Assembly: GCA_965203805.1 (NCBI GenBank)
Contig: OZ241917.1
Span: 4,320,001 to 4,384,000, forward strand
Direction: 5' to 3'
DNA length: 64,000 bases
From: Candidatus Latescibacterota bacterium
Lineage (GTDB): Bacteria; Latescibacterota; UBA2968; GCA-2709665
Below, one piece after another: positions 24,744-47,217 of the stretch; position 1 is the stretch's first letter; each line of letters starts with the position of its first letter. Made by a program: the position numbers and the translations under genes. Below the pieces are notes generated by a model that saw nothing but the letters and a program-made list of their open reading frames with translations, had not been told where the DNA came from and did no database searches.

Positions 24744-27700
24744 CTAATCAAACCTCACGAACGCCATCGGCCGCGCCACGCACGAATCCCCGGGCCCCAG
24801 GTCGTAGATCACCGGCATGTCATCCGGCGCGTTGGGCCAGGGAATCGCATCCCGCAGCACGAAACGGTGTCCGCCCTCGTCTCGCGGTATGACTCGCTCG
24901 ATGGTGTGGAGCCGTTCCTTGTAAGCCAGGCGTGCGCCCTTCAGATAGTGGCATCCGGAATCTTCCGTATCCTCCCACTCCCGGTGGATCCACGTCCGGG
25001 TCAGCAATCCGTCGTCCGTCTCCGCTTCGACGACGAACCTTCCGATGTGCAGCCGTTCCGCGTCCAGCGAACACAGCCACCCGTCGCCCGCCGCCTTGAC
25101 CGACCGGATGGGGAAGTTGCACGCGTGGGGAGGGTTCGCCACCATCAGGGTCTCGCCCGAGGGGGGCGCCCCGCCGGTGTCCGACGTTACGGTCACCCGG
25201 CGGTTTTCCGTGTCCACTTCCGTAATACGTCCCCGCCATGTTCCTGCGCCTTCGGCCTGGATGTCTCCGAATCCCAGTCTGTTTCCCGACAAGCACGCCC
25301 AGGCCGGTCGGCCGGCGTCGTCGAGGGTTAATACGCCGAAGCCGCCGTGAAGTTCGAGGCCGCCATCGAAGACGGACCGGCCCTCGTCAGCCGACGCGCT
25401 CAGGACGAGACATTTCCCATCCTGCCACGATATTTCCAGTCCGATCGCGTCTTCACCTTCGATCAGATCCAGCCGCCTGACGCGCGTCAACTGCGGGTTT
25501 TTCCGATAGGTTTCGCAGACAACGGCGAACAGGCTGTTCAGGTCGCCTTGCCGGCGGCCCGAACGATTCCGCAGGAGGACGTAGTCCAGGTGTTCGGGCG
25601 CCCCCGGTCTCTTCGGTGTTTTGCCATGGGCTGTGATGACCTCCTGCGCGACATCCGCGGGGACGATCATCCGCAGACCCATCTCCTCGTCCCGCCACAC
25701 GGCCCGGAATTCACCCGCGGGCTGCCCGCGCTTCACGTCGTACAGGTAGGAAAAGCCGCTGCCCCGGTACGAGTGGTAGCTACGCTTGCCGTTTGTCCCC
25801 GGCAGGCCAGGCAGGTTGGCGTGCCGTTCAAGTTCGGGATCGTCGTACAGCTTCTTGAAGGAAACTTTCGGCCCGGCCAGCGTACCGCCCTCCTGTCGCT
25901 GGAGCGAAACGCCTTGGGTTGAAAAATCCCCGGCGAATCCGTGGAAGGAATAATCGTGCGCCCAGCCGCCCTTCACGCGGAAAAGGTCCACCAGGACCTG
26001 CAGGTCCGGCGCCAACTCCAGCAGCGTCACACCGCGCCGATACACGTTTGCGTCCAGGTAAGCCCGCGGCGCCGAGAGTTCCACGTGCTGCACGTGCGGG
26101 GTGGTACCGAACCGTTCCAGGCGGCCCTCGTCGGCCGTGTCCTGCCGGCTTTCGTTCACCACGACGGTGACGTGACTGACGGTGTTCTTCTCCCAGGCCG
26201 GCGGGTCCGGGTGTTCGGCGGCGTGGGTGGGATAGCCCGTATCGGGCGCCACGCGTTTGCCGCCGGCGATGACCTCCAGATTCAACCGGTCCCGGTGCGC
26301 GTGGCCGGCGTTGGCATGGCCGTACTGAAGTACCGCCGCCGTCTGGTTCCGCGCCCGCCCGCTTCGCAGAATCACGAATCCCACCCCGCCGAGGTTATCG
26401 CTCGTCTCCGGCCATTCCGGCAGATTACCCGCGGCGTGTTCCAGTTCGGCTCTCGTCAACGGCTCCTCGAACAGGTCGTCGTAACTGCGGAGCCCGTTTT
26501 CTTCCGTTGCGCCCTCGTTCAGGAGCGCGCGGGCGTATTCCGGCCACCCGTAACCCCTGAAGAACCGCCGAAGCGAGGAAGTATCCAGCATGGGATAGGT
26601 TGCCTCCGCGCCCGTATCCGCTATGGCGGGCATCTTGCCGCCCCAGCACGCCAGTCGCCGCGACCAGCTGCCCAGAGAACGCACGTGTTCCCCCGGAAGC
26701 CGGCGCTTGGCCAGGCGTTTCAGGACCAGGTCCGTATCCAGCATATACCGCGTCCAGCAGCCCGCCGAATAGCCGATCGCCACCTCGAACGAGACCCCGT
26801 CACGGAACAGGAAGTTATCCAGCGCGTGATTCCAGCCCTCGACGCCGTACGCCCACACTTGTGTGTCGGGCCCGCATCCGGTGTACGTCTCCAGGTTCCG
26901 GATGGCCCAATCCGTAAACGCGTCGTCGTCAAGGACAACCAGTGCTTTCACCGCCGAGGCCTGGTGAAGCCCGTAGTTCCCACGAATCTTTCCTTCCCAG
27001 ATGTCCCGTACCGACTGCCGCACCAGGTTGTCTTCCACGTGCCGGACCAGCGCTTCCGGTTTTTTGCCCAGAAACTCGTGTACGCCGCTTTCAGCCTGCA
27101 ACGCCGGAAACAGGTTGTCGTACGCCTCGGCATAGAGCCCGATATTGAACGATTCCTGTACGGCATAAAGAAAACGTCCCGTATAGCCGACCTGGTAGTT
27201 CAAGCCGTACCAGGATTGGGCGGCGTGGTCCATGGTGGGAAACAGCGCGGCCATCCTGTCCAGCAGGATCGCGCCCTTGCGGCCGTACCGCGCGTCTCCG
27301 GTCATCAGATACGCGCGACCGAGATCCTGAAGCGCCGGAATCAACTGGTGCCAGAGCCGGTAACAATAGTGCGCGACGAACCAGAACCGGGGCCGCCCGT
27401 CGCCGGGGTCCCAGCCAGAACCGTCGTCGGCGTAATCGCCGGTAAGCAGGGCGCGGTCTCCGGTCCTGTAATACGCCATAAAGTCGTTCGAAGGGTACTC
27501 CTCGCCGCCCACGGCGCATTTGATCTTCCACGGACGGTTGAAGATGTTCACCTGCCAGGGTCCGCCCGGCGCCTGAAAGACCGCCTCGCCATGGACCGGA
27601 CACCCGTCGAACGACGGCAGAAACCCACGGAAGACGTCCGCCGGAGGCGGCAGGTCGCGCACGTACGCGTCATCCAGTTTCGCCCAGACTTCGGCACGTT

Positions 27701-27803
27701 CGACGATCTCATCCGCGATCTTCGTCGCCGCGGGAAACCGTACCACGTGGTCCTTCATCCTGCGAACCTCGTCCTCCGTATGCCATGTGCGACCGGTCTT
27801 CAT
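24744..27803 (-). CDS. Heparinase II/III-family protein
   Basis: GNYGLHQ, DGVSFEVAIGY, GHAHRDRLNLE, PDTGYP, NTVSHVTVVVN; true start probably ATG 27803 (AAGGA RBS), not 28076. Confidence 0.83.
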   Translation of the reverse strand: MKTGRTWHTEDEVRRMKDHVVRFPAATKIADEIVERAEVWAKLDDAYVRDLPPPADVFRGFLPSFDGCPVHGEAVFQAPGGPWQVNIFNRPWKIKCAVGGEEYPSNDFMAYYRTGDRALLTGDYADDGSGWDPGDGRPRFWFVAHYCYRLWHQLIPALQDLGRAYLMTGDARYGRKGAILLDRMAALFPTMDHAAQSWYGLNYQVGYTGRFLYAVQESFNIGLYAEAYDNLFPALQAESGVHEFLGKKPEALVRHVEDNLVRQSVRDIWEGKIRGNYGLHQASAVKALVVLDDDAFTDWAIRNLETYTGCGPDTQVWAYGVEGWNHALDNFLFRDGVSFEVAIGYSAGCWTRYMLDTDLVLKRLAKRRLPGEHVRSLGSWSRRLACWGGKMPAIADTGAEATYPMLDTSSLRRFFRGYGWPEYARALLNEGATEENGLRSYDDLFEEPLTRAELEHAAGNLPEWPETSDNLGGVGFVILRSGRARNQTAAVLQYGHANAGHAHRDRLNLEVIAGGKRVAPDTGYPTHAAEHPDPPAWEKNTVSHVTVVVNESRQDTADEGRLERFGTTPHVQHVELSAPRAYLDANVYRRGVTLLELAPDLQVLVDLFRVKGGWAHDYSFHGFAGDFSTQGVSLQRQEGGTLAGPKVSFKKLYDDPELERHANLPGLPGTNGKRSYHSYRGSGFSYLYDVKRGQPAGEFRAVWRDEEMGLRMIVPADVAQEVITAHGKTPKRPGAPEHLDYVLLRNRSGRRQGDLNSLFAVVCETYRKNPQLTRVRRLDLIEGEDAIGLEISWQDGKCLVLSASADEGRSVFDGGLELHGGFGVLTLDDAGRPAWACLSGNRLGFGDIQAEGAGTWRGRITEVDTENRRVTVTSDTGGAPPSGETLMVANPPHACNFPIRSVKAAGDGWLCSLDAERLHIGRFVVEAETDDGLLTRTWIHREWEDTEDSGCHYLKGARLAYKERLHTIERVIPRDEGGHRFVLRDAIPWPNAPDDMPVIYDLGPGDSCVARPMAFVRFD

Positions 27804-28036
27804 TTTACGAATTCCTTTCGGTCCCTTCGACTTGAGAATCGCGTCCGGCAGCAAAGTAATCAGGAAAATGCGAAAATGGAAAAAGAAAAACAGCACGTTT
27901 CGTGTGCCGGATTCGGACTGTAAAACTTCGCGCCGGCCGCCCGAGCCTCCGTGAGCGATTAAGTGAAATCTCGATTTCCAGCTGCCAACAGGCACTCGTA
28001 TTGGCAATGATTTACGCGACAATTTCCTGATAGGAC

Positions 28037-28065
28037 TTGACAAATTGTACGAAATTGTGTAAGAT
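28037..28065 (+). promoter_or_regulatory. Sigma70 promoter of the ACP-XRE-ImmA-TS operon, with a possible XRE operator
   Basis: TTGACA (28037-42), 17-bp spacer, TAAGAT (28060-65); spacer contains the AAATTGT direct repeat and the ACAAATTGT near-palindrome; AAGGAG RBS before ATG 28097. Confidence 0.7.
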
Positions 28066-28096
28066 TTTCTTACCACACGTAAGAAAGGAGAGTGCT

Positions 28097-28387
28097 ATGG
28101 AAAAGACAGAGGTCGTTCGCAAGGTCGTGGAGGTAATTGGAAATGTCCAGCAAGAGAGTGGTAGGACACCTCACGATATTACCGCAGGCACGTACATCTA
28201 CACGGATATCGACGGCTTCGACAGTTTGAACGGCGTTGAAGCTACGGTGATCCTGTCCGAAGGGTTGGGTGATGCCGAATTGCCGGACGATCTATTCCTC
28301 CCCGAAAAGGGCCATCGAGATATTTCGGTCGGTGAGATAGCAGACCGGGTTTGTGATCAACTAAACGTGGAGGCAAACGTCAGATGA
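28097..28387 (+). CDS. Acyl carrier protein (phosphopantetheine-binding domain)
   Basis: 96 aa, acidic, DIDGFDSLNGVEATVILSEGLG matches the GxDSL Ppant site; C-terminal SVGEIAD. Confidence 0.8.
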   Translation: MEKTEVVRKVVEVIGNVQQESGRTPHDITAGTYIYTDIDGFDSLNGVEATVILSEGLGDAELPDDLFLPEKGHRDISVGEIADRVCDQLNVEANVR

Positions 28388-28734
28388 GCGATCAAGACCT
28401 GCTCCGTCGAAACATTGCTTCAAGGTTGCGGATGGCACGGGAGCTGGCAGGGCTCACACAAGGACAGGTGGCAAAACGCCTAAGGTATCACCGGCCGACT
28501 GTGTCCGAGATTGAGGCGGGCAGGCGCAGGGTAACAGCGGAGGAACTAACTATGTTCTGTGAACTATACGGAGTAAATGTGCACTGGATCACAGGAGAGG
28601 ATACGCAAGATACGGCAAGCTTTAAAGCTAAGCTCGCAGCCCGAGAGTTGGACAAGCTAAAGGATGAAGATCTTGATCGGCTGTTGCAACTCATTCAGTC
28701 ACTGAAGACTTCAGAGGATCCGTCGGATAAATGA
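28384..28734 (+). CDS. XRE-family HTH transcriptional regulator
   Basis: RLRMARELAGLTQGQVAKRL...TVSEIEAGRR; ATGA overlap with the ACP gene. Confidence 0.95.
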   Translation: MSDQDLLRRNIASRLRMARELAGLTQGQVAKRLRYHRPTVSEIEAGRRRVTAEELTMFCELYGVNVHWITGEDTQDTASFKAKLAARELDKLKDEDLDRLLQLIQSLKTSEDPSDK

Positions 28735-29588
28735 ACCGGAAAACTGTAGCTCGAAGGGCCATTTTTAAAGCACTGCAAATGCGTAAGCAAGCGGGTTACG
28801 GATTGGATTGCGCAATCTGTGTCTACGACTTAGCACAAAGACTCGGCGTTGAAGTGCGTTTTCTGGACCTCCCGAGTATGGAGGGCATGTATTACAATGT
28901 CCCACGGCCGCACATAGTCATTTCTTCATTGCGCCCCGTTGGCCGCCGCGCGTTTACGTGTGCTCACGAACTCGGCCATCATTGTTTTAACGACGGTACC
29001 CACATTGACGAACTTACTGAACAATTCAAGAGTCCCCGTCAAGATCCGCGTGAGTTTGCCGCCGATTGTTTCGCCGGTGCTCTTCTGATGCCCAAAATGG
29101 CAGTTGAGAAAGCGTTTGCTGTTCGCGGTTGGACTATCAGAGAGTGTACGCCGGAACAAACCTTCGCGGTTTCAAATTACTTTGGAGTTGGATACACGAC
29201 ATTGATCCATCACCTGCGGAGTGCTCTACATCTACTTTCCCACTATCGTGCCGAGGAACTCTTGAAAATACCGACACGCAGCGCACAAAACTTGGCGCTT
29301 GGCTGGGAGACGACAAAAACTGCTTGGATTGTCGACCGGAACTGGATAGGACGGCCAATCGACGTTGAAGAAGGTGATCTGATTCTCGTGCGGGGAAAGG
29401 TTTGTATTGAGGGGCGGAACTTAGAACACCTGGCAGATAAGCACGGGGGCAGAGTCCTCCGCGCCATACGCCCGGGCATCGCAAGGATTGAAGATAGTTC
29501 AGGTTGGTCGTCCTTTATACGAGTATCCAAGCGAGGATTCATCGGGCGCGCCATGTTTCGTCACGATGAGGAGTTCGGCGATGAATAG
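28731..29588 (+). CDS. ImmA/IrrE-family metallopeptidase
   Basis: RRAFTCAHELGHH (HExxH), EFAADCFAGALLMP; ATGA overlap with XRE. Confidence 0.93.
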   Translation: MNRKTVARRAIFKALQMRKQAGYGLDCAICVYDLAQRLGVEVRFLDLPSMEGMYYNVPRPHIVISSLRPVGRRAFTCAHELGHHCFNDGTHIDELTEQFKSPRQDPREFAADCFAGALLMPKMAVEKAFAVRGWTIRECTPEQTFAVSNYFGVGYTTLIHHLRSALHLLSHYRAEELLKIPTRSAQNLALGWETTKTAWIVDRNWIGRPIDVEEGDLILVRGKVCIEGRNLEHLADKHGGRVLRAIRPGIARIEDSSGWSSFIRVSKRGFIGRAMFRHDEEFGDE

Positions 29589-30363
29589 TTACAATCCTAT
29601 AGAGGATCAGAACCTCTCGGTTGCGTGGGGGAAGGCGTTTTTGAAAGTGTTTCATGAAGGCGAAGTCGCGCCAATGACAGTCAAGATCAATGTGTTGGAT
29701 TGCCGAGAACCTGAAGAGATTCCGTCCATTCGAAGAAACCTTGATGCCAGCTTGAACAATCGTCGTGCAAAGCTCTCTTGCGACCAAGTCGCGAATACGA
29801 TTTTCCCTATCTCACTTTGGAACCCAAATGCAGACAGAAGACTACTGTACAAGAGGTACCGAAGAATCTGCCCTCGCATACTTCGCCACCGCAGCAATCG
29901 AAATGGAGTGTATTTCCAGCGTTTCATTGCCTATGGCGGCGGATCCTGCACCCAAGGCGGAGTAAACCAATTGGAGCATATCATCCAAACGTGGCACCGT
30001 GGGAACCACCGCAGGTCAGCCCTCCAGGCTGCAGTATTCGATCCATTGACCGACCACACGCACCAACGCCAGCGGGGTTTTCCTTGTCTTCAACAGGTAG
30101 CATTTGCAGGAAAAAACGGTGGCTTATCTGTTACCGGCTTCTACGCGACGCAATACATCTTTGAACGTGCCTATGGCAACTATCTTGGCCTATTTCGGCT
30201 GGGTCGATTTATGGCGCACGAGATGAAACTAAGGTTGGAGCAAGTCATATGCGTCGCATCTCCCGCCAAACTGTCCGGCGTACGGAAGCGGGATCTGTCG
30301 GCGCTTGCTGAGCAAGTTAAGGAAGCCCTCGAGCACTACGCGTACTCAGACGACTTCAGGTAG
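29581..30363 (+). CDS. Divergent thymidylate-synthase-fold protein
   Basis: NLSVAW, YFQR, NQLEHII, RRSALQAAVFDP, GFPCLQQ (catalytic-Cys position), AYGNYLGL; lacks the canonical RSxD and HxY motifs; start ATG 29581. Confidence 0.7.
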   Translation: MNSYNPIEDQNLSVAWGKAFLKVFHEGEVAPMTVKINVLDCREPEEIPSIRRNLDASLNNRRAKLSCDQVANTIFPISLWNPNADRRLLYKRYRRICPRILRHRSNRNGVYFQRFIAYGGGSCTQGGVNQLEHIIQTWHRGNHRRSALQAAVFDPLTDHTHQRQRGFPCLQQVAFAGKNGGLSVTGFYATQYIFERAYGNYLGLFRLGRFMAHEMKLRLEQVICVASPAKLSGVRKRDLSALAEQVKEALEHYAYSDDFR

Positions 30364-30381
30364 AATAGGGGCGTCATTCTT

Positions 30382-32073
30382 ATGCAAACCGGACCTGCGC
30401 AACTGATAGTATTGGAAGGACCTGATGGTGTAGGTAAGTCGACGATTTCTTTCGCGCTCTACGAGAAGCTCTCCAACTCCTCTATTGAGTGTGAGTATTT
30501 TTCGTTTCCGGGCAAGGAAACCGGGACAATCGGACGTTTAGTGTACGACCTTCACCATGAACCGAGGATGTTCGGACTAGAACCACTAAGTCCCGCCAGT
30601 CTACAAACCCTACACATTGCGGCGCATTTGGATGTAATTGAGCAACGGATTCGGCCAGCCATTAACGACGGAAAGTGGGTCATACTGGATCGATTCTGGT
30701 GGTCAACTTGGGTCTACGGGCGTGCATCCGGGATGGACGGAAGTATGTTGGATGCGTTGATTGAGGCGGAGCGTATTCAATGGCAGGGTACCACGCCCCT
30801 AGCCCTCTTTCTCATTGATCGATCTCCGGATCTGTCTGGTCGCAATGATCAAGCCACAATCCGTATGGGGTATGACGAACTCTTCAAAAGAGAACAAAGC
30901 CAGTACCCCGTTTATAAGATTAAGAATGACGGCTCAGTGCAAGAAACGCTGAACGAAACATTGGGGATTTTGCGAGACGTCACAAGTCGGAAATCGGATT
31001 CTGATACGAAGCAGATAAACCCGGATTCAGAGAAAAAAGTGACTCAACTATCTATTCCACTTATTGGAGAGGCACCTTTTTCAGTCTTCACGAAACTATC
31101 CCCCGCCGTGCCGACTGTCGTTTATGACAGTCTCTGGCGGTTCGCTGTAGAACGGCAGGAAGTTTTTTTTCGTAAGATTGATGGACGTCCCTGTCCCTGG
31201 ACCGACGATGAGATCCTCCGTCGGCATAAGTTCACGAATGCCTATCGCGCTTCAGACCGCGTTAGCCAGTATCTAATTCAACACGTAATCTATGAGGGGG
31301 AAAAGACCCCAGAGGAGGTATTTTTTCGAACGATTCTCTTTAAGCTGTTTAACAAGATCGAGACTTGGAAACTGTTATCTACGAAATTAGGAACGGTCAG
31401 TTATGCCGATTTCTCGTTCTCCAGATACGATGAGATACTAGCAAGAGCACTCTCATCCGGCATTCGTATTTATTCGGCAGCGTATATTATGCCGTCAGGT
31501 AAGACATCGTTTGGCTATAAACTGAAACACCGCAATCATCTAACGCTTCTTAAACAAATGATGGAGGATGAGGTACCGCGCAAAATTGAAGACGCGCTAA
31601 ACATGCGACAGGCTTTTGAACTATTGCGCTCCTATTCTACAGTAGGCAGCTTTCTCGCTTATCAGTATGTAACAGACCTCAATTACAGTGCAATTACTGA
31701 CTTCTCAGAGATGGAGTTTGTTATACCTGGTCCAGGCGCGCTGGATGGCATTCACAAGTGTTTCGCCGACCGTGGCGGCCTTAATGAGAGGGACATTATT
31801 CGAGTAGTCACGGATCGACAAGAGCAGGAGTTTGAACGGTTGGGGCTACGATTTCGCTCTCTCTGGGGTAGGCGCCTGCAGCTGATAGATTGTCAGAATC
31901 TCTTCTGTGAAGTCTCCAAGTACTCTCGCCTGAAGCATCCCGAGATTCCAGGGATCAGTAAACGAACCCGAATAAAGCAAATATACCGTCCTTCCGATGA
32001 TCCAATACGATATTGGTATCCACCGAAGTGGCGTATCAACCACCTCATCCGCCAAATCTCGAGATTAACGTGA
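30382..32073 (+). CDS. Fusion: dTMP-kinase-like P-loop domain plus aGPT-PPlase clade 1 (5-hmdU DNA kinase helical domain)
   Basis: N-terminal LEGPDGVGKST and ILDRFWWST. C-terminal WRFAVERQ..F..K....PWTDDEIL..HKFTNAYRASDRVSQYLI, LFKLFN..ETW, YSAAYIM, G.FLAYQ..TDLNYS, GPGALDG, DCQNLFCE..KY. Confidence 0.85.
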   Translation: MQTGPAQLIVLEGPDGVGKSTISFALYEKLSNSSIECEYFSFPGKETGTIGRLVYDLHHEPRMFGLEPLSPASLQTLHIAAHLDVIEQRIRPAINDGKWVILDRFWWSTWVYGRASGMDGSMLDALIEAERIQWQGTTPLALFLIDRSPDLSGRNDQATIRMGYDELFKREQSQYPVYKIKNDGSVQETLNETLGILRDVTSRKSDSDTKQINPDSEKKVTQLSIPLIGEAPFSVFTKLSPAVPTVVYDSLWRFAVERQEVFFRKIDGRPCPWTDDEILRRHKFTNAYRASDRVSQYLIQHVIYEGEKTPEEVFFRTILFKLFNKIETWKLLSTKLGTVSYADFSFSRYDEILARALSSGIRIYSAAYIMPSGKTSFGYKLKHRNHLTLLKQMMEDEVPRKIEDALNMRQAFELLRSYSTVGSFLAYQYVTDLNYSAITDFSEMEFVIPGPGALDGIHKCFADRGGLNERDIIRVVTDRQEQEFERLGLRFRSLWGRRLQLIDCQNLFCEVSKYSRLKHPEIPGISKRTRIKQIYRPSDDPIRYWYPPKWRINHLIRQISRLT

Positions 32074-33068
32074 TCCGGCTTTTTTCTGGTCCAACGGCAG
32101 ACCACGTATGGTGCCAAATTGCAGATACATTCGGTGAATCAGAAGTTGTTCGCCCGCAGGATAGTCGAGGCGGTCCAACTAGAGAGATACTGCATGCCGC
32201 GTTATCAATCGAAAACCCAAGACAGCGGTGGGTGATTTCGAGGAAACCGCCAATGAATGTCGCGTATGCATTGGCAGAAATCGTATGGATTATAAGAGGG
32301 AGGCGCGACCTTAAGTTTCTCGAATTCTGGAATCGGAATCTTGGTCACTATGTCGGAAAGGGTCCAGAGCTTCACGGATCCTATGGCCATCGGCTACGTG
32401 GGCATCTTGGAACTGACCAGTTGAAACGGGCTTACGACTCATTGCGTCACGAGCCCGATACCAGGCAAGTTGTTTTGCAAATTTGGGACTCGGCCGTTGA
32501 CTTGCCAGCGGCCGATGGATCGCCTGCGGATCAGGATATTCCCTGCAATGTAGCGTCATTGCTGAAGGTACGAGATGGAAAACTTGAGTGGACACAGATA
32601 ATCAGGAGTAACGATGTCTTTCTCGGCGTACCATACAACTTTGTCCAATTCACATTCCTGCAGGAAATCGTGGCCGGGTGGCTGGGGATTGAGTGCGGTT
32701 CCTACAACCAAATTAGCGATAGCTTACACATGTACGAAAAGGACATGGCAAATTTGGTCGGTTTCGCGGATACGTCAGTTAAATGTAGCTATCAGGATTC
32801 CCTTGCTCTGCCGTGGGACGATTCGAATCTCGTATTTTGCGAAATGGAACACCGAATAGAGCGGATGATCGAGCCAACGACCCGCAATCATGACCTGGAA
32901 AATCTGGCAATTTGGGACTCGGCTCCGCCCGCGTACCGAAATTTAGCTTCTGTTCTCGTCGCGACCGCACTGCACCGGCGTCGCCAAAGAGACGCTGCAG
33001 AGCGAGTCATCTCGAGGTGCAAGAATTCGGTTTATGTAGAACTTTGGTATAGGCGCTTTTCTCCATGA
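32070..33068 (+). CDS. Thymidylate synthase/dUMP hydroxymethylase-like enzyme
   Basis: SRGGPTREI, LAEIVWI, YGHRLR, TRQVVLQIWD, DIPCN, RSNDVFLGVPYN, SLHMYE; GTG 32070 overlaps the upstream TGA. Confidence 0.88.
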   Translation: MIRLFSGPTADHVWCQIADTFGESEVVRPQDSRGGPTREILHAALSIENPRQRWVISRKPPMNVAYALAEIVWIIRGRRDLKFLEFWNRNLGHYVGKGPELHGSYGHRLRGHLGTDQLKRAYDSLRHEPDTRQVVLQIWDSAVDLPAADGSPADQDIPCNVASLLKVRDGKLEWTQIIRSNDVFLGVPYNFVQFTFLQEIVAGWLGIECGSYNQISDSLHMYEKDMANLVGFADTSVKCSYQDSLALPWDDSNLVFCEMEHRIERMIEPTTRNHDLENLAIWDSAPPAYRNLASVLVATALHRRRQRDAAERVISRCKNSVYVELWYRRFSP

Positions 33069-33211: not shown

Positions 33212-33727
33212 TCATATTAAGTGAGCTATGTGTAACAGTTCTTCAGTAGTTATACGCAGATCATCCTTAATTTGATCAATATCCCATTTTCTCGCAATAA
33301 AGCGTCTATTGTGTGCGGCGCGATCACCAAGTCGTTTAATTCTAGGTAATGCATCTCGTGTATTACGTCCAAGATTCCAACTGGTTTCCTTAATAGTAGC
33401 ATCTACTAAACCACCCAAATAGAAGAAATCACCACTAGGGAATTTGATTTTTGCTTCAATACCATGTTTTTCATAGCATTCAATAATCAATATTTCAGTT
33501 AAACGACGAATCATGACGGCACATGCGTCAAACCAACCATTACTATAACAACCGTTAATCTGTTCTACGATTCTCAATAAATATCCACGAGTATTATTAA
33601 ATAGTGATCTTGGTATAACTTGCTGTTCGGCAGTTAATAATCGTTCAGTATAGGTCGCGTCAAAAGGAAGTAATGCCTTCTGTATTGCCTTACCTGTACC
33701 TAAAAAGAATTTCGCCCATTGATTCAA
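33212..33727 (-). CDS. DUF4145/HEPN-like protein
   Basis: CAVMIRRLTEILI helix and KRLGDRAAHNRR (R..x..H HEPN-type); start codon uncertain (TTG). Confidence 0.7.
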   Translation of the reverse strand: MNQWAKFFLGTGKAIQKALLPFDATYTERLLTAEQQVIPRSLFNNTRGYLLRIVEQINGCYSNGWFDACAVMIRRLTEILIIECYEKHGIEAKIKFPSGDFFYLGGLVDATIKETSWNLGRNTRDALPRIKRLGDRAAHNRRFIARKWDIDQIKDDLRITTEELLHIAHLI

Positions 33728-33732
33728 GGAAT

Positions 33733-34368
33733 TTATTCACTCTCTTTTTTGTAAAGATGACGAGCCATACTATCGAATATATTATCTATTTGTGTTGCGC
33801 TCGCTTCCGATGAAATGTGTATTTGGATGTCGATATGCAGGGAGGGATTAGTGGTTGGTTCTTTAATTGAGGGAGTCGTTGGTAATTGTGATTCAATTGC
33901 AGGTGTGGTTTTTTCTTGTATATCGCGATTCACCTGTTTCGGTTCATTTTCTGTGTTAGAAAAGTCTGCTTCTTTGCATAATGTTTGAAAGGTACGAACT
34001 GCTTTATCTATAACTGATTGTCCACCTGGGCTATTTGCGCTCATAAAATTCCGAATGTTCATTGCATTTTCAGTATTTGCACACGGATACATTTCGAATA
34101 ACTGCTGGTATCCCTTACGAATTGCATTCGCTAATACTATCTTTGAGTTTCCACCCTTAAATGCCTGCCACGAATCTGTTGGTTTTCGAGCGTTGTCAAT
34201 AAAACCAATAAAACGCAATACTGACAATAAAGATTGATCTGCATTTGAGGAAAAGCCTTGTGCCTTTAACCAATTCACATCTGCCTTTTGAGGCTTGCCC
34301 ATTATTTTCATCTTATTAAGAAGGTCAGTTAATTTACTTCCAGAGTGAGCAACCACGTACACACCCAT
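33733..34368 (-). CDS. DUF5343-like protein
   Basis: GKPQKADVNWLKAQGFSS..DQSLLSVLRFIGFID...PTDSW, LANAIRKGY, TFQTLC..ADF, C-terminal LHIDIQIHI...QIDNIF; GGAGG RBS. Confidence 0.7.
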   Translation of the reverse strand: MGVYVVAHSGSKLTDLLNKMKIMGKPQKADVNWLKAQGFSSNADQSLLSVLRFIGFIDNARKPTDSWQAFKGGNSKIVLANAIRKGYQQLFEMYPCANTENAMNIRNFMSANSPGGQSVIDKAVRTFQTLCKEADFSNTENEPKQVNRDIQEKTTPAIESQLPTTPSIKEPTTNPSLHIDIQIHISSEASATQIDNIFDSMARHLYKKESE

Positions 34369-34542: not shown

Positions 34543-36365
34543 GAGTCCACTCCGAAAAGTCGCATTTACTTATGCTGGTGAAAGTACTAAATTCGAAGTG
34601 TGAAAAGTCAGCAAGGATGAAGTATTGAGAATTACAATTGTAGAGAGCGTGGGAGAGGACAGATGTATAAGCCGAGTGCGTCGTGCAGTCAACCGGATCT
34701 GTTTTCGAATTTCGAGTCGCATTTCACACAGCGGAAGCAGGCGCAGTTGAATGATCCGAAGTCGTGGCATAATCTGTTTTACCAGCACATCACGTCAGAG
34801 ATCGACGAGGATGTGTTTTCCGTGTTGTTTGATCCCGACATAGGCCGTCCCAATGCCCCGATTCGTCAGTTGGCGGCGATGATGGTCTTGAAGGAGGGCT
34901 TCGGGTGGAGCGATGCACAACTGTTCGAGCAATGTCGGTTCAATATCCTGGCGATGCGGGCATTGGGGTTGATGAATCTGTCTGATGAGGCGCCTGTGGA
35001 GTCGACGTATTATCTGTTCAAACAGTCCTTGTATGCGTATCAACTGAAAACCGGTCGGGATCTGGTTGGCGAGACCTTTAGCAGCTTAACGAAGACGCAG
35101 GCCGACGCCTTTGGTGTGCTGGGTCAGCAAATCCGAATGGACAGTAAGTTAATCGGCTCGAACATTGCGCTATGTTGTCGGTTGCAGTTGGTGGTGGGTT
35201 GTTTACAACGGTTCTGGGGATCGTTGGACGAGGCCCGGAAGCGGCGATTATCAGGAAAACACCGGCAGGTTCTGGACGGAATGCTCAAGGTGAAGCCCCA
35301 TCAGGTTGTCTACCGTCTCACCCGTGCTGAAAAAGGTGAGAAGCTACAGGAATACGGTGTGTTATTGAGCAGGCTTCAAGCGATCTATACCGAGAAAGAC
35401 AGCGATCACTATGGTGTGATGGCGCGTGTTTTTGGAGACCAGTATTCGGTTTTATCCTCCTCCAAACAGGTGCTTCCCAAGCCGCCTGATGAGATCTCCG
35501 CATCCTCCTTGCAGTCCCCCGATGACGAAGATGCGGCCTTTCGTAAGAAAGGGGAAGCGAAGGTGAAAGGATACAGTGTGAACCTCACCGAGACCTGCGG
35601 TGAGGAGGGCCTCAATTTGATCACGGACATTGACGTCAAATCCGCGACAGCGCCCGACAACGCGTTTGTGCAAGCGGCCGTAGGGCGCACACAGCACGTG
35701 GTAGGGCAGGTTCGAGACGTGTCGATGGATGGGGCCTATAATGATCAATCCAACGCCGAGTACGCAAACGAACACGACAAGCAATTCTATTACAGTGGCC
35801 TGCAAGGAACCCCAGGGCGTTTCATTTATCGACGAACAAGAGAAGGCGTCGAAGTCATGGATCGAAATACCCAAGCCGTGCAGCTTGCCCAAGAATACAA
35901 ACCGGGGAAATACAAACTCATCATGGATGGCAAACCCCGATACTTTAAAGAACAGGCCATCGACAACTACATCAAACGCAAACAGAGTGAAGCCCTGCCT
36001 GAACACATCAGAAACCGACGCAATAACGTCGAAGCCAGCCTCTTCCAGTTGAGCTATTACACCCGAAACGGCAAAACTCGCTATCGTGGATTGATGCCAC
36101 ATCAGCTGTGGGCGCACTGTCGTGGCTTATGGGTCAATCTCGTTCGGATCCAGAATTACCTCACCTCACCCACGATGCTCCCCGCATAAGATGCGACTTT
36201 TTTATGCATATCCTTGCCCCAAAACCACGCGAGCAACCTCGTAAACCGCCTCTGTGTTGATGGGCCGCAACCCGATGCACTTTCACCACGCAACGCGACC
36301 TCTCAATACACAACACTGACACCTACACACGAAATCTTCCTGAACCCCCTTCTCGGAGGGGACTC
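34543..36365 (+). mobile_element. Complete insertion sequence, 1,823 bp (IS1182/IS5-like DDE; family tentative)
   Basis: TIRs GAGTCCACTCCGAAAAG (34543-59) and CTTCTCGGAGGGGACTC (36349-65), 15/17 match; flanking direct repeat AATAAT at 34537-42 and 36366-71. Confidence 0.92.
34663..36189 (+). CDS. DDE transposase with N-terminal DUF772-like domain
   Basis: GRPNAPIR...WSDAQL, RMDSK, LQSPDDEDA..RKK, SMDGAY, RNNVEAS, TRYRG. Confidence 0.92.
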   Translation: MYKPSASCSQPDLFSNFESHFTQRKQAQLNDPKSWHNLFYQHITSEIDEDVFSVLFDPDIGRPNAPIRQLAAMMVLKEGFGWSDAQLFEQCRFNILAMRALGLMNLSDEAPVESTYYLFKQSLYAYQLKTGRDLVGETFSSLTKTQADAFGVLGQQIRMDSKLIGSNIALCCRLQLVVGCLQRFWGSLDEARKRRLSGKHRQVLDGMLKVKPHQVVYRLTRAEKGEKLQEYGVLLSRLQAIYTEKDSDHYGVMARVFGDQYSVLSSSKQVLPKPPDEISASSLQSPDDEDAAFRKKGEAKVKGYSVNLTETCGEEGLNLITDIDVKSATAPDNAFVQAAVGRTQHVVGQVRDVSMDGAYNDQSNAEYANEHDKQFYYSGLQGTPGRFIYRRTREGVEVMDRNTQAVQLAQEYKPGKYKLIMDGKPRYFKEQAIDNYIKRKQSEALPEHIRNRRNNVEASLFQLSYYTRNGKTRYRGLMPHQLWAHCRGLWVNLVRIQNYLTSPTMLPA

Positions 36366-37410: not shown

Positions 37411-40400
37411 TCACTGACCGTCCAAAATCTCCTTCAACTTCTTCTCTATCGGTGGTTTGTCCTGCCCGGTTGTAAACTCAGGCGGCCTAAAGAGAGGGTT
37501 GCCGGGTGACCAGAGCTCAACGCTATCAGAGTTTTCCTCGAAATATTCCGGATCAGTAGTCACTCGAAGGCGATCTCTCATTCCTGGGGCCAAGAGTCCG
37601 TATTCTCGACTACCCAAGAACTGGATTTCGGTACCCTGGGGCATAACGTCCGGCGACGTGATGACTCTGTCCAAATCCGCCATCGATACAGGGGATGGCG
37701 CCCGTTCTGGCATCGTGAGTTCTTCGTCTGTCACGTCGTCAATATTGAATCCACCTCTCTCGGTCTCCTGAGCCTGCTGTTCGATCTCGTCCAAAACGTT
37801 AGCGCGTCGTATTGCATCCCTTTCCTCGCCCGAGAGCACCGTACGTGAGATTGTGCGGGGCAATTGCGCGAGAATCGGTTGCAGACGGCCGACGACGGAC
37901 TCGAATAGTCCAATTCGGTTTCGGAGCGCCCTGTAAACGTCCGTTTCGACTGTACCATTATAGTGGAGGTTTATGATCCGAATAGTCTCGTGTTCTTGTC
38001 CGAGCCGGTCAATACGACCAATGCGCTGTTCGACCCGCATCGGATTCCAGGGCATATCGTAGTTGATCACGGCGCCGCAGAACTGGAAATTCAAGCCTTC
38101 TGCTGCCGCGTCAGTGCAAAGGAGAATCTCGGCCTCACCGTCGCGGAACCTTTGTTTGGCCTCGTCGCGTGTGAGGCCTTTCCAAGAGCTGTCGGCGGAA
38201 AGCATTTCGGCGCCCCGTCCGGAATAGCACATCAACGTGAATTCGCCATCCTTGCGGAGCGCTTCACGAAGGAAGTCCATGGTGTCTGTGTATTGGGTGA
38301 AGACCATCACACTGGTATACCTGTCATTGCGAAGCTCGGTAAGGGCGCTCTTGAGGCTGTCGAGTTTACTGTCCGGCGGAAGTTGGGAGATATTTTCGAG
38401 AAGTCCTTCGATGTCGGACTCTTCGGCGGCAGCAAGGGCCACTTTCTCAAGTTGCTCTACCTGCTCGACGTCCAAAATTTCGTCGACCGCTTCGTCGTCA
38501 GGAACGTCCTCCTCGACCCCGAGTTGAAGGTCAGGGTTGTCTGCATCTATGTTGGCGAGATGACGTTGAAGCGTCGCGCGGAGGGCGTTAATGCTGCTCG
38601 CAAGCCGTCGACGGTAGATTGTCATCACGAAACCTACGGATGTTCGTTCCTTCGGGCTGGCCTGGTTGTAAGTCGTCGCTATGTAGTCCTCAACAGATTC
38701 ATAGATGGCTCGTTCTTCCGTCCTCATTTCCAGGAAACGATCTTCCACCCTGCGCACGGCAACGGGCGCGGTAGACTGCTGCACCGTGAAATAACGTCGA
38801 AGTAGCTCTCGCGTGTGTCGAGAAATCAGCCGCCTCAGTGGAGTATTCGCACGTACGACTCTAACCGCGGCCCTGCGCTCGGCCGTCTCCAGTTTACGAC
38901 GCGGGATACTGGCGTCATTTCGGAGTGCCCGAAGAACTTTTTTGAATCTGAGATCCGATAGGTCGACAATACGCTGCATTTCCTCTGTCTTCGCTTCGCC
39001 GTATGCTTTTTCCACCGCTTGAAATAAACTCGCCATTCGTTCCAGCGCGTCAGGTGACGGATTCGCCTCGTCGGCATCGTCAAAAAAGCTCAGGAAAGCC
39101 GTTGCCGACCACTTCGCTGGCAAGCCAAGTAGATTCAACAAGTCCCAGACCTCTATAGGATGCACCTGCATGGGGGTCGCGGTCAGCAGAATCAGCCCCT
39201 GAGTGCGATCCTTCAAACCCAGCATCAGACGCAGGAGTGCGTTCGGTCCACCCTGCTGTGGCGTTCCTGCCGCTCGCCGACGGGCGTGATGTGCTTCGTC
39301 AAGCACAACCAGATCCCACGGCTCCGCCTCGAGCAGTGTTTCCGCACGGTCGCCACGTCGCATCAGTTGACTTGAGGCAATCACGACGGGTTCTCGATGC
39401 CATTGCTCAGGTTCCACATCGCGTTCGATACTGCCACGCAGGGCAGGCGAAGGATACCAGACCATCCTGCTTCCGTCGTAAATCGGCCAATTAAGGTTGA
39501 ACTTTTCACGCAGTTCTACTTGCCACTGGTTGAGGATGGCCTTCGGTGCCAGGATCAGGATCCGTTTCGCCCGGCCGGAGATGTACGCCTGCCTGAGTAA
39601 CATACCGGCCTGTATGGTCTTACCGAGGCCGACCTCGTCAGCAATCAGAAGCTTCGGAGGCCAATTGTTATACATGCGTTCATACGCCCTTACCTGGTGC
39701 GGCCATGGTACAACTGCCGATGTCGCTTCGCCAACCCGTTCGCCTCCGTTTTGGAACGTAGGAGCTTGTTGGATGAATGACCACACACGGCTTCTGATAT
39801 CACCAGGGTCGGGTACCGCTGGCGTTGGAATTTCCTTTGTCTTGGGTTTTGGCCGAGGTTTGGCACGCTCCTTGTCGAGCTTCTTAAGCCGCGCCGGTTG
39901 GTCGTCTTTGGGCATAAAGCGCATCAAGTCCTCACGTACCGCGCCGGGCACGTCAAGTACAATTGCGCGGCGCGCCTGGCCGGACCAAATCCCTGCAAAG
40001 TTGTCTTGTTCTTGATCAACGCGCTGGTGATCCGGCCCCCAACTCGTGAAAACGTTGATGCTTTCCCAATTATGTTTCCAGCCTGCGGCCGTTTCATTCA
40101 GGCTGCCGTTCCAGGCGATCTTGTTGCCGCCACGGTCCTCGATAATTCCGGACTTCTCATGGAAGATCCCGTCCATTGGGATCGGCTTGCCATTGATGTC
40201 GCAAGGTACGGCAACCTTGACATCCAGATGTCCGCGCGCGACCATCCATGCGAGCAACTCGAGTGCATCGGAGGATGCCGTGTCAGGTGGAGCTAAAGGG
40301 ACATCTGCTAATCGTAGCTCGATCAGGTCCCTGAGCCGCTCGCCTTTTTCGATTGCCTCTATCTCCTTCGGATCCAGAGTGCAGCCGACGACGAGGCGCA

Positions 40401-40584
40401 TGCGTCCGCCATTCCGCACGAGCCCTTCGATGCCGCGAGCCGCCAGCGACAATGCACTGGCGCTGAAGTACCCGGTCAGCCGATCGTAACGTTCGGAATC
40501 CTCAAGCGCGGGTAAATAAAACAGCCTGACGAGGTCTCCGTCATCAGGCGTATATTTAAGTCTCCATTTGTAATCACTAAGCAC
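37411..40584 (-). CDS. PLD-nuclease plus SNF2 helicase (restriction-like/DUF499 system)
   Basis: YDRLTGYFS, FHEKSGIIED..GSLNET (PLD), ADEVGLGKT, DEAHH, LTATP, EGLNFQ, YDMPWNPMRVEQRIGRIDR. Confidence 0.93.
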   Translation of the reverse strand: MLSDYKWRLKYTPDDGDLVRLFYLPALEDSERYDRLTGYFSASALSLAARGIEGLVRNGGRMRLVVGCTLDPKEIEAIEKGERLRDLIELRLADVPLAPPDTASSDALELLAWMVARGHLDVKVAVPCDINGKPIPMDGIFHEKSGIIEDRGGNKIAWNGSLNETAAGWKHNWESINVFTSWGPDHQRVDQEQDNFAGIWSGQARRAIVLDVPGAVREDLMRFMPKDDQPARLKKLDKERAKPRPKPKTKEIPTPAVPDPGDIRSRVWSFIQQAPTFQNGGERVGEATSAVVPWPHQVRAYERMYNNWPPKLLIADEVGLGKTIQAGMLLRQAYISGRAKRILILAPKAILNQWQVELREKFNLNWPIYDGSRMVWYPSPALRGSIERDVEPEQWHREPVVIASSQLMRRGDRAETLLEAEPWDLVVLDEAHHARRRAAGTPQQGGPNALLRLMLGLKDRTQGLILLTATPMQVHPIEVWDLLNLLGLPAKWSATAFLSFFDDADEANPSPDALERMASLFQAVEKAYGEAKTEEMQRIVDLSDLRFKKVLRALRNDASIPRRKLETAERRAAVRVVRANTPLRRLISRHTRELLRRYFTVQQSTAPVAVRRVEDRFLEMRTEERAIYESVEDYIATTYNQASPKERTSVGFVMTIYRRRLASSINALRATLQRHLANIDADNPDLQLGVEEDVPDDEAVDEILDVEQVEQLEKVALAAAEESDIEGLLENISQLPPDSKLDSLKSALTELRNDRYTSVMVFTQYTDTMDFLREALRKDGEFTLMCYSGRGAEMLSADSSWKGLTRDEAKQRFRDGEAEILLCTDAAAEGLNFQFCGAVINYDMPWNPMRVEQRIGRIDRLGQEHETIRIINLHYNGTVETDVYRALRNRIGLFESVVGRLQPILAQLPRTISRTVLSGEERDAIRRANVLDEIEQQAQETERGGFNIDDVTDEELTMPERAPSPVSMADLDRVITSPDVMPQGTEIQFLGSREYGLLAPGMRDRLRVTTDPEYFEENSDSVELWSPGNPLFRPPEFTTGQDKPPIEKKLKEILDGQ

Positions 40585-40586
40585 GG

Positions 40587-43565: not shown

Positions 43566-43659
43566 CGGTTTAATACCGCATTTGCTCCATTGTCAATTCT
43601 GGGTATAAGATTTCGCGAAATCTCTAATGTTGAAGTCGGTTTGACCACACTAACCGACA

Positions 43660-45411: not shown

Positions 45412-45653
45412 GCCCTGGTCCTCTTGATCAGACCACGATCCAACTCCACGGCGCTGATCATGTAAAGCAAGTCAAGGGCGAGAACGAACCACCGATAGTC
45501 GATGACCGGGCTGGAGGCGTCAGCTGACCGGCGAGACCGGATCTCGTCCCAGAGCCTTGACATAGTCATCGGCTCGCTAAGTGCGTCGAGCACTTCCGCT
45601 CCCACGCCGATCAGCGCTCGGTCAGGCGAGATGTGTTTGGTCGGGAGAATCAC
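45408..45653 (-). CDS. lmuC: ABC-3C middle component (LmuC-like)
   Basis: 81 aa from GTG 45653 (AGGAG RBS): MILPTKHI..DRAL..VG...WFVLALDLLY; ATGA overlap with the ATPase. Confidence 0.82.
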   Translation of the reverse strand: MILPTKHISPDRALIGVGAEVLDALSEPMTMSRLWDEIRSRRSADASSPVIDYRWFVLALDLLYMISAVELDRGLIKRTRA

Positions 45654-45657
45654 TCTC

Positions 45658-46551
45658 CTACTCCGGGTCTTCAAAGATGTCACACCGCTCGAAGAAATAG
45701 GACAATACAGCCAGCGCCGCGTTTTGTTGGGCCGGTTCCCCTCCCGTGCCGGCGTACTGTTGTAGGTGCGTGAATATTCCATCCGGCGACCTTCCGGCCC
45801 CCTTTAGCTCGGCATATCGACCGCGGAACGCCTCCGCAATCTGTTCGCCGAGGTCTGCATTAGGAGTTCTCCTGAACCAGGTCTCGACCAATGCCTCCTT
45901 ACGCCGTCCCACTCGGAGCAGTTCGGCGGCGTCTTGGGAGAGCGAATTTCTCGCAAGCTTGTCCACCGACGGCGGGGTGAGCGGTTCCTCGCCGGGTATG
46001 GGATCTGCCCTCTGAAGTGCGTCGATGACAGGTTTCAGGTCCTCCAACATCAGCGTTTCGACACCTGTCTTCGTCGGTGCATAGCCAAAGAGGGCCTGAA
46101 TAGCGTACAAAGGGAGACCGTCAACAAGCTGCTGTAGTTTAGCCTCTGTCCAAATTTCTATCTTGATATTGGGATGACTTTCCCGAAGCCCATTAATCAA
46201 CTGGATCGATGACGGCGGCAGTCCTCGGCCGTCGTTGTGAACCAGCACCCACTCTGCCATGTCATTGCCCCAATGTGCATAGGCCCCGCGAAAGTCTTGG
46301 CTGACTTTGTCGTTAAGTTTCGCTGCCGTCATCTGGTCCGGAGCGTAACACTGGAAAATGGTACGGGTGCTGACTCGACGCCCGTCGCACTTAAGATCGC
46401 CTTGACTCCCGTACGGGCGAACAGCCTCAAAGTCCGGTCCGAAGGCGTACCCTGCAAGTTTGACGAACCAGTCCTGGAATTCGCTCCCTTTCTTTTCCAA
46501 GAACGCCTCACGAAAACGCAGTCGGTAGAACGCTGTTTGTACTTCATCCAT
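45658..46551 (-). CDS. lmuA: ABC-3C/Lamassu effector: N-terminal restriction-endonuclease-fold domain plus CTD
   Basis: GSEFQDWF, GDLKCDG, QCYAP (PD-(D/E)xK-like variant), C-terminal KL..NSL and YFFERCDIFE; start ATG 46551. Confidence 0.83.
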   Translation of the reverse strand: MDEVQTAFYRLRFREAFLEKKGSEFQDWFVKLAGYAFGPDFEAVRPYGSQGDLKCDGRRVSTRTIFQCYAPDQMTAAKLNDKVSQDFRGAYAHWGNDMAEWVLVHNDGRGLPPSSIQLINGLRESHPNIKIEIWTEAKLQQLVDGLPLYAIQALFGYAPTKTGVETLMLEDLKPVIDALQRADPIPGEEPLTPPSVDKLARNSLSQDAAELLRVGRRKEALVETWFRRTPNADLGEQIAEAFRGRYAELKGAGRSPDGIFTHLQQYAGTGGEPAQQNAALAVLSYFFERCDIFEDPE

Positions 46552-47139: not shown

Positions 47140-47217
47140 TCCGTCTGTCCCTCCAAAGTAACTAACGGAATATCCCGTGGAGAATCGCAATTTAACAAGA
47201 GTCCATACCAAACCTGT

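Follow-up and report, generated by a model that had tools for sequence, protein, structure and literature searches.

A conserved operon combining a CapH/CapP-like switch, predicted 5-hydroxymethyluracil enzymes, an acyl carrier protein and a putative thymidylate synthase paralog, with a candidate anti-phage role

The genome of Candidatus Latescibacterota bacterium (assembly GCA_965203805.1) carries on contig OZ241917.1 an operon of six genes, here called g1 to g6, which lies in the stretch of 64,000 nucleotides from position 4,320,001 to 4,384,000 (the window, whose own numbering is used below). The operon brings together an acyl carrier protein (ACP) family member (g1), a repressor and a peptidase of the CapH/CapP type (g2 and g3), two proteins of the thymidylate synthase (TS) fold (g6 and, probably, g4), and a kinase fused to the helical domain of the enzymes that phosphorylate 5-hydroxymethyldeoxyuridine (5-hmdU, hmdU) in DNA (g5). 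The features of the locus and of the surrounding island are collected in Table 1.

Table 1. Features of the operon and of the island around it, in window coordinates
Feature	Position	Strand	Description and best match
Short repeat ACAATTTC	28019-28026	+	window-specific, near the -35 box
Short repeats AAATTGT	28042-28048 and 28052-28058	+	window-specific, near the -35 box
-35 box TTGACA	28037-28042	+	sigma-70-type promoter, 17-nt spacer; consensus match 10/12 with the -10 box
-10 box TAAGAT	28060-28065	+	same promoter
Operator palindrome GTAAGA-TTT-TCTTAC	28059-28073	+	encloses the -10 box
Third operator half-site GTAAGAA	28079-28085	+	overlaps the ribosome-binding site; present in 40/46 aligned regions
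g1	28097-28387	+	96-aa ACP family member; family profile against solved ACPs, best 6.3e-8
g2	28384-28734	+	XRE-family helix-turn-helix (HTH) repressor, CapH-like; HTH_31 6.1e-16, HTH_3 6.6e-13, PADLOC capH 2.7e-11
g3	28731-29588	+	ImmA/IrrE (M78) zinc metallopeptidase, CapP-like; Peptidase_M78 3.4e-22, PADLOC capP 4.4e-18
g4	29581-30363	+	260-aa probable divergent TS-fold paralog ("t"); TIGR03283 8.7e-12
g5	30382-32073	+	563-aa fusion of thymidylate-kinase-like P-loop and 5-hmdU-DNA-kinase helical domains; Pfam
g6	32070-33068	+	332-aa TS-family enzyme, probable dUMP hydroxymethylase; Thymidylat_synt 1.5e-22
Convergent pair directly 3' of the operon	33212-34368	-	DUF5343 protein, PADLOC candidate PDC-M34A (4.8e-36); weak DUF4145 protein
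DUF772 transposase	34663-36189	+	within the island
HmaA	37411-40584	-	helicase
HmaB	40587-43565	-	DUF1156 methylase
PDC-M68B	43660-45411	-	between HmaB and HmaC; E 1e-160
PDC-M68A	45658-46605	-	between HmaB and HmaC
130-aa open reading frame	46819-47211	-	between HmaB and HmaC; unassigned
DUF7680	47218-47784	-	between HmaB and HmaC
HmaC	47666-50794	-	DUF499 ATPase
D12-class adenine methylase	51166-52092	+	PD-Lambda-5_B-like (1.5e-43), near the right island edge

The six genes (28097-33068) are co-oriented and translationally coupled behind a single upstream promoter: ATGA overlaps join g1 to g2 and g2 to g3, g3 and g4 share 8 bp (ATGAATAG), g4 and g5 are separated by an 18-nt gap, and g5 and g6 overlap by GTGA. 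This layout, with its TTGACA-17-TAAGAT promoter, had been described in an earlier note made from the letters of the DNA, and all of it is read directly from the sequence. The start of g1 is the ATG at 28097, with the ribosome-binding site (RBS) AAGGAG ahead of it, the TTG at 28037 that opens g1 in the mechanical list of open reading frames (ORFs) being the -35 box itself. A promoter consensus scan detected no promoter-like site between the operon genes, and since its yield of 2 sites in 5.8 kb, where shuffled sequence gave 5.8 on average, shows no enrichment, the promoter is backed instead by its conservation: of the 46 homologous upstream regions aligned, 39 have a TTGAC box 5' of the operator. 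On the opposite strand, the 5' end of a heparinase II/III-like ORF (24744-28076) is over-extended in the same list, so that it crosses the operon promoter, and a terminator-like hairpin on the minus strand (27909-27891) falls inside the over-extended part.

The conservation of the gene set, on which the earlier note had staked its proposal, was followed in 83 loci, namely the best 80 of 322 relatives from species-representative genomes and three plasmid loci, which were selected via g5/HMUDK_hel and annotated with hidden Markov models (HMMs) made from the window proteins and recurrent neighbours. The genes g1-g2-g3-g4-g5 are contiguous and co-oriented in 47 of them, spread over about ten phyla, and two further loci lack only g1; the proposal withstands this check. 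Among these 47, g6 follows on the same strand in 22, and in 26 its place is taken by MazG and MazG_C (PF18722, 2.7e-76), often together with a dCTP-deaminase-like gene; the exact gene order of the window recurs in 18 of the 83 loci, with a g5/g6 gap of 8 nt or less in 16. The presence of an HMUDK_hel gene in every locus is a consequence of the selection, for which reason a control set selected through g4 is informative: four of five new loci have g3 upstream and g5 downstream, the fifth having a partial g4 and no kinase within 1.5 kb. In the 83 loci g1 and g4 always accompany the g2-g3 switch, a few degraded loci excepted.

The sequence ahead of g1 is conserved as well. In 50 aligned regions upstream of g1 homologues the pattern tgGTAAGAT-tt-TCTTACca is followed after 4-7 nt by GTAAGRA, and GTAAGA-N3-TCTTAC is found with no mismatch in 32, one in 13, two in four and three in one; at two mismatches or fewer it is present in 49 of the 50, against a background of 57 in 3920 random 220-nt windows. 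The TAAGAT hexamer thus remains a promoter box, as had been noted, and belongs at the same time to a conserved operator palindrome. The operator of the window is the sole site at one mismatch or fewer in its 5.87 Mb genome, and the g2 repressor is the presumed binder of this palindrome (GTAAGATTTTCTTAC) and of the third half-site, so that g2 would, in the simplest reading, be a dedicated autorepressor. The conservation of the operator upstream of the cassettes implies that promoter, operator and genes travel as one unit. The AAATTGT repeats near the -35 box were also considered as the operator and rejected, because they are not conserved at other loci and may be due to chance. Constitutive marking of self DNA, too, was rejected, as the operon is repressor-gated and has no partner nuclease.

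The two switch proteins correspond to the CapH/CapP type, in which an XRE-family HTH protein and an M78 peptidase with an HExxH motif stand together at an immune operon. The HELGH motif of g3 (codons 79-83, 28965-28979) has H79, E80 and H83 invariant across 49 sequences, and it is followed by a conserved C-terminal domain of about 120 aa without match to a known family. In two preprints (bioRxiv 10.64898/2026.05.16.725639 and 10.1101/2022.04.27.489752) CapP is described as activated by single-stranded DNA (ssDNA), cleaving CapH and inducing immune operons. The capH and capP matches, the intact HExxH and a palindromic operator at the promoter are in common with these regulators; in contrast, the pair is here co-transcribed with its cargo and embedded among the cargo genes, an ACP gene preceding it in 47 of 49 cases. 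A second XRE-ImmA pair is encoded elsewhere in the same genome (C1:4912020-4913329). In a cyanobacterial cassette (L076, 3319-5754) an 811-aa ORF of no known family replaces g1 and most of g2 and ends in the last ~35 residues of the repressor, an apparent insertion into, or disruption of, the switch.

The carrier protein g1 is recognized at the level of its family. Taken alone, the protein of the window has no Pfam match, PP-binding included, whereas the profile of 46 homologues matches at least 60 solved ACPs with its GFDSL aligned to their GLDSL, and thus combines the PP-binding fold with the DSL serine; the Pfam PP-binding model (PF00550) is matched at E of 0.1 or less by 18 of the 46 members, at best with 2.2e-6. 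Ser43 in GFDSL (codon 28223-28225), the predicted site of phosphopantetheine attachment, is invariant in all 46 sequences, and phosphopantetheinylation of g1 is accordingly a prediction from the family alignment. An ACPS-type transferase gene (PF01648, 4.7e-15) is present in 11 of the 83 loci, 10 of which have the cassette, all of the MazG type, and none adjoins the window operon. No fusion of g1 into a longer protein was seen among 8000 scored candidates, which is weak evidence.

The fourth gene had been designated TS*, and the designation holds in part: g4 is probably a divergent paralog of the TS fold, while the implication of a dead enzyme does not hold, as all 42 sequences retain Cys169 (FPCLQQ, codon 30085-30087) and Asn200 and it is the RSxD motif of TS that is replaced, by A-T-Q-Y. 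Alone, g4 has no Pfam match, and it reaches 45 bits with the archaeal-type TS model TIGR03283, below the cutoff of 174.55; the model is matched by all 42 aligned homologues, all far under the cutoff. An hhalign comparison of the g4 and g6 families is weak (E 0.0016, probability 16%) and sets Cys169 against the nucleophile of TS and Asn200 against the Asn that specifies the base. Among structures in the Protein Data Bank the g4 family profile has one match, the CMP hydroxymethylase MilA, which is also weak (E 0.2). The family is large, with 1757, 1214 and 644 cluster representatives at 50% identity for E of 1e-3, 1e-10 and 1e-30, respectively, and a tblastn search of 50,697 phage records returned no match to g4. 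In one 624-aa protein (P0224, on a single contig of 13,179 bases) a g4-type TS fold (aa 2-252) is joined to HMUDK_hel (aa 302-581, 1.8e-110); it is a singleton in its 90% cluster and may be either a real fusion or the product of a lost stop codon or an assembly artefact.

The last gene is a TS-family enzyme by its Pfam match (80.5 bits against a cutoff of 24.3) and its match to phrog_5131 (2.2e-59), and it carries the nucleophile, the RSxD motif and the uracil-type Asn: Cys159 (codon 32544-32546), R179, S180 and D182 are invariant in the family, and N190 is conserved in at least 90%. Its phage matches (2166 records) are headed by a tier with E from 1e-24 to 1e-35 composed of SPO1-like and CP-51 Bacillus phages, PaMx11/M6-like Pseudomonas phages, SP10-like phages and ViI-like Ackermannviridae phages, which are the reported or expected carriers of hmdU-derived bases, the T4-type td enzymes reaching only about 1e-8. 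In a tree of 56 rows (quick search, SH-aLRT support only) host ThyA, T4-like td and actinophage TS form a clade with 100% support on a 4.8-unit branch, and 33 of 34 g6-family rows lie opposite the canonical TS, in a polytomy with SPO1 gp29, SP10 gp188 and PaMx11 gp51. On this sequence evidence g6 is probably a dUMP hydroxymethylase.

The best solved relative of g6 is again MilA (3.8e-25), and Asn190 stands where MilA has Asp, which predicts specificity for uracil rather than cytosine. The likeness to MilA, together with an ACP and a phosphopantetheinyl transferase, which are typical of secondary metabolism, would be expected if a pyrimidine hydroxymethylase of this kind, a kinase and a carrier protein built a small molecule, a modified-nucleoside natural product. 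This explanation is very improbable, since it is contradicted by the predicted uracil specificity, by a cassette devoid of adenylation, condensation, ketosynthase, tailoring or export genes, and by the CapH/CapP-like control and the defence-island setting.

The fusion protein g5 has been proposed to link a dTMP kinase to the helical domain of phage DNA kinases. Its C-terminal half is HMUDK_hel (PF18723, 4.1e-110, aa 246-522; 368 bits against a cutoff of 25), presumably the "aGPT-Pplase1" of an older nomenclature, and the proposal stands for this half. The N-terminal half matches Thymidylate_kin (PF02223, 1.6e-16, aa 11-125; 61 bits against a cutoff of 27, with profile positions 1-109 of 185 covered) and has an invariant Walker A motif, GPDGVGKST (aa 13-21), and an invariant DRF motif; with 53.9 bits it stays below the cutoff of 83.25 of the dTMP-kinase equivalog TIGR00041, and it has no match to the phage-type kinase PF18748 (HMUDK_HMUD1), so that this half is thymidylate-kinase-like and not of the phage type. 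In BLASTP the C-terminal domain aligns with residues 307-637 of SP10 gp186 (27% identity, E 1e-23), which Lee et al. 2021 name in their Table 1 among the 5-hmdU DNA kinases; in gp186 a PF18748 kinase (2.8e-23) precedes HMUDK_hel, and the N-terminal halves of the two proteins have only the Walker A stretch in common (E 0.17). The two proteins thus appear to be parallel architectures in which the kinase comes from another lineage, and the relation of g5 and g6 to the phage 5-hmdU pathway, suggested in the earlier note, is borne out by this alignment and by the top phage matches of g6. The fusion is abundant, at least 7509 of 8000 scored candidates matching at E of 1e-10 or less, and the best 120 candidates listed are nearly all of about 565 aa with both domains.

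The partner of HMUDK_hel is a PF18748 kinase in SP10, a thymidylate-kinase-like domain here, and missing from 22 loci, of which 20 belong to the MazG type; from these three states it is suggested that HMUDK_hel is a substrate-presenting module, and g5 is predicted to phosphorylate 5-hmdU within DNA. The equation of MazG_C with the P-loop kinase of the g5 N-terminus was rejected, as there is no Walker A motif in the MazG_C alignment. A thymidylate-kinase-like domain is found in 42 of 43 loci with g6 and in 18 of 40 without it (Fisher p 3e-8, a value overstated by the relatedness of the loci), and this near-constant co-occurrence fits a kinase domain acting on the g6 product. In a ViI-like phage a phrog_800 gene, TS and dNMP kinase are likewise adjoining.

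The same enzymes could act on the nucleotide pool alone. Defence through depletion of dNTPs is established for dCTP deaminase and dGTPase systems, and here g6 and g4 would divert dUMP, the kinase or the MazG and dCTP-deaminase-like enzymes would reshape dUTP, dCTP and dTTP, and HMUDK_hel would bind nucleotides rather than DNA, leaving phage replication short of dTTP or supplied with an unusable analogue. The g5 kinase is in fact thymidylate-kinase-like, and what replaces g6 in the sister cassettes, MazG and MazG_C with a dCTP-deaminase-like gene, consists of pool enzymes throughout. Nevertheless such sabotage of the pool is considered unlikely, since HMUDK_hel is shared with enzymes that phosphorylate hmdU within DNA, and depletion alone requires neither an ACP nor a second TS-fold protein.

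A second arrangement of these genes is the pair g5-g6 without g1-g4, present in 18 of the 83 loci and mostly followed by the gene of a 172-aa protein without known family, a ThsB-type TIR gene and Nmad2. In this switch-less module, seen at L007-L015, L021, L032, L054, L064 and L073 (~9-14 kb per locus), the order is kinase::HMUDK_hel, TS, the 172-aa protein, one or two ThsB-type TIR proteins and Nmad2 (PF18753, 1.5e-70). Over all related loci a ThsB-type TIR gene is present in 31 of 83 and Nmad2 in 28 of 83, and type I restriction-modification (R-M) genes also occur. Beside the operon of the window neither an Nmad2 nor a TIR partner was found when its own genome was searched; far from the operon, at C1:2951182-2952347, this genome encodes a pair of the 172-aa protein (2.7e-63) and a ThsB-type TIR protein (9.7e-53), without Nmad2 or HMUDK_hel. 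On plasmid pP742404 of Gloeothece citriformis PCC 7424 (L002, 114-4660) an HMUDK_hel-only gene overlaps the end of an annotated cGAMP-activated phospholipase of a CBASS (antiphage signalling based on cyclic oligonucleotides) system and MazG/MazG_C, a TIR protein and an Nmad2-type protein come after it.

The cassette is distributed over Chloroflexota, Acidobacteriota, Cyanobacteria, alpha-, beta- and gamma-proteobacteria, Desulfobacterota-type lineages, Planctomycetota, Verrucomicrobiota, Bacteroidota and Binatia. It occurs in patches, in 2 of 168 genomes from the host phylum, in 0 of 14 congeners and in 5 of the 401 genomes sampled from another phylum, as is expected for a horizontally acquired accessory gene set. 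Mobility also raises the question of whom the operon serves, as a cassette induced by an SOS-like signal or by transfer could hypermodify the DNA of its own carrier, be it a plasmid, an integrative and conjugative element, an island or the chromosome, and so let it escape restriction. Pairs of XRE and ImmA proteins such as ImmR/ImmA are classic induction switches of mobile elements, and of the three plasmid loci examined, two are carried by plasmids typed as conjugative, which is also compatible with an element-selfish role; moreover, the phage homologues of g5 and g6 serve anti-restriction, according to Lee 2018 and 2021. The cassette, however, travels with no transfer or replication genes in the 83 loci, its recurrent neighbours are TIR, Nmad2 and R-M genes, and it has no transferase to complete a hypermodification; in addition, a related unit of E. 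coli is reported, in the DefensePredictor study considered below, to have lowered phage plating. An anti-restriction role is for these reasons judged improbable.

The surroundings of the operon agree with the defence island that had been proposed for it. The GC content falls to 0.45-0.51 over 28-36 kb, against 0.60-0.64 upstream, and stays low to ~52 kb, and the neighbours include PDC-M34A, an Hma system with embedded PDC-M68 and a PD-Lambda-5_B-like methylase. The whole Hma region (37411-50794), in which other genes lie between HmaB and HmaC, agrees with the pattern that Payne et al. 2024 call "embedded defence". No tRNA gene lies in the window. Phage structural families, whose absence nearby had also been claimed, were not seen among the island ORFs scanned, the scan covering part of them; the reading as a phage remnant was rejected on three grounds, namely this lack of phage structural genes, the absence of g4 from the phage records searched and the conservation of the cassette as a unit. 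The comparison with known systems in PADLOC was made with the HMMs of PADLOC-DB v2.0.0, without system rules. These models give no match for g1, g4 and g6 and, for g5, only a partial match to PDC-M51B on the kinase domain (8.8e-13, aa 7-155); only the regulators are classified, and by these models the cargo genes fall under no named PADLOC system, in line with the expectation that the operon would prove unclassified.

Taken together, these observations are best read, with a confidence somewhat above even, as a horizontally mobile, self-repressed and inducible conflict operon, most likely anti-phage, in which the hmdU pathway is turned against replicating foreign DNA. The support for defence consists of the genes of the low-GC island, the TIR, Nmad2 and R-M neighbours of other loci, the patchy distribution and the DefensePredictor unit. 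In the resting state g2 would occupy the operator over the -10 box, the transcription start and the RBS, and keep the whole operon low, until g3, by homology with CapP, would cleave the repressor in response to ssDNA or DNA damage during infection. The g6 enzyme would then turn dUMP into 5-hmdUMP, and the kinase half of g5 would make the diphosphate, two steps proposed from the enzyme families and their co-occurrence; host enzymes would presumably yield hmdUTP, which polymerases would take into new DNA. There, the HMUDK_hel half of g5 and its P-loop kinase may phosphorylate hmdU, and since no aGPT-Pplase2-type transferase is present at the locus, a bulky, charged 5-phosphomethyl-dU would stay in the DNA. 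The persisting base may block transcription and probably replication or packaging; transcription by bacterial RNA polymerase was switched off when 5hmU in the template was phosphorylated, according to PMC6457204. The conserved pair of g4 and g1 would be devoted either to further processing of the modified base or to an input into the switch.

Several points weigh against this reading. The role in defence is drawn from association and from a related system, and phages that use hmdU suffer no harm from it. The model assigns no necessary role to g1 and g4, whose linkage is the tightest within the cassette. The replacement of g6 by MazG/MazG_C in 26 cassettes implies that hmdUMP synthesis by g6 is not a universal core, and in the MazG-type cassettes either g4 makes the modified base or the chemistry differs. 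In addition, sequence alone cannot separate g6 from a true thymidylate synthase, g6 and the phage hydroxymethylases forming a polytomy in a quick SH-aLRT tree, and the g5 kinase, being of PF02223 and not of PF18748, may be a nucleotide kinase and nothing more, in which case HMUDK_hel would have no DNA kinase.

A function for g1 and g4 can be conceived if g4 acts on (phospho)hydroxymethyl-uracil in DNA presented by HMUDK_hel and not on a free nucleotide, its invariant cysteine regenerating an exocyclic methylene intermediate of the TS type, and if the phosphopantetheine thiol of holo-g1 captures this intermediate, so that an ACP or its cofactor arm would be tethered covalently to phage DNA. This is a speculative and improbable scheme. 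Hints in its direction are that g4 keeps Cys and Asn and has lost the Arg and Asp of RSxD, which bind free dUMP and folate, that g1 and g4 are always together beside an HMUDK_hel gene, that ACPS genes occur in the loci counted above, and that one g4::HMUDK_hel fusion exists, the singleton and possible assembly artefact already described. If true, it would represent the first DNA modification that depends on an ACP and a novel means of killing a replicating genome.

Returning to the preferred reading of an inducible operon directed against foreign DNA, its interest lies in a reversal of use. Phages hypermodify thymine to escape host nucleases, and the cassette suggests that hosts of about ten phyla have captured the first steps of this chemistry, reversed its use and placed it under a damage-sensing switch. 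The locus offers direct handles, namely a unique conserved operator and single mutable catalytic residues in four enzymes. No current model of DNA modification or phage defence covers its carrier protein or its Cys-bearing TS-fold protein, and working out the cassette could reveal a new enzymatic reaction on DNA and tools for site-selective hmU chemistry.

Known systems share parts of this composition. MilA, of the mildiomycin pathway, is the best solved match of g6 and the only one of the g4 profile; it differs in having Asp, instead of the Asn of g6 and g4, at the position that specifies the base, and in acting on a ribonucleotide in an antibiotic pathway. In SPO1, thymine is fully replaced by hmdU through the gp29 dUMP hydroxymethylase, a dUTPase/dTTPase and a dCMP deaminase, a pathway which works for the phage genome and is not known to include a DNA kinase. 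The g6 protein is ~35% identical to gp29, and those sister cassettes that encode MazG, a TS-fold enzyme and a dCTP-deaminase-like protein mirror the rewiring of the nucleotide pool by SPO1. With the phages that hypermodify thymine (SP10, ViI, M6, PaMx11 and PhiW-14; Lee 2018 and 2021) the cassette shares HMUDK_hel of g5 and the adjoining of hydroxymethylase and kinase, and g6 probably groups with the phage dUMP hydroxymethylases. The cassette, in contrast, is host-encoded and controlled by a repressor and a protease, has a PF02223 kinase instead of PF18748, lacks aGPT-Pplase2, pyridoxal phosphate-dependent or radical S-adenosylmethionine finishing enzymes, and adds an ACP and the TS paralog g4, with no phage counterpart (searched for g4).

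Full-text literature searches returned no description of the cassette, although unsearched journals and supplements may hold one, and computational notes on such neighbourhoods by the Aravind group probably exist. The claim that there is no characterised precedent therefore stands for the cassette itself in the literature searched, and it fails for the wider pathway, because DefensePredictor (DeWeirdt, Mahoney and Laub, Science 2026) has validated a related unit of E. coli. In that study, phage protection in E. coli MG1655 is conferred by a unit of TS, dNMP-kinase, 5-hmdU-kinase and NMAD, whose mechanism is not studied there, and systems of aGPT-Pplase, MazG, MazG-C, HTH and NMAD appear as untested predictions. 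A distant blastn search for an E. coli counterpart with the HMUDK_hel region returned nothing from 20,395 E. coli records, and the comparison is made by the described domains. The E. coli unit has the TS, dNMP kinase and 5-hmdU kinase domains in common with the window and probably corresponds to the g5-g6-(u)-TIR-Nmad2 module of the 18 loci; it has NMAD, whereas the window has the g1-g2-g3-g4 module and no adjoining Nmad2 or TIR gene. Host-encoded defence through the hmdU pathway thus has one experimental precedent, given without mechanism, to which the operon described here adds an ACP, a TS paralog and an operator.

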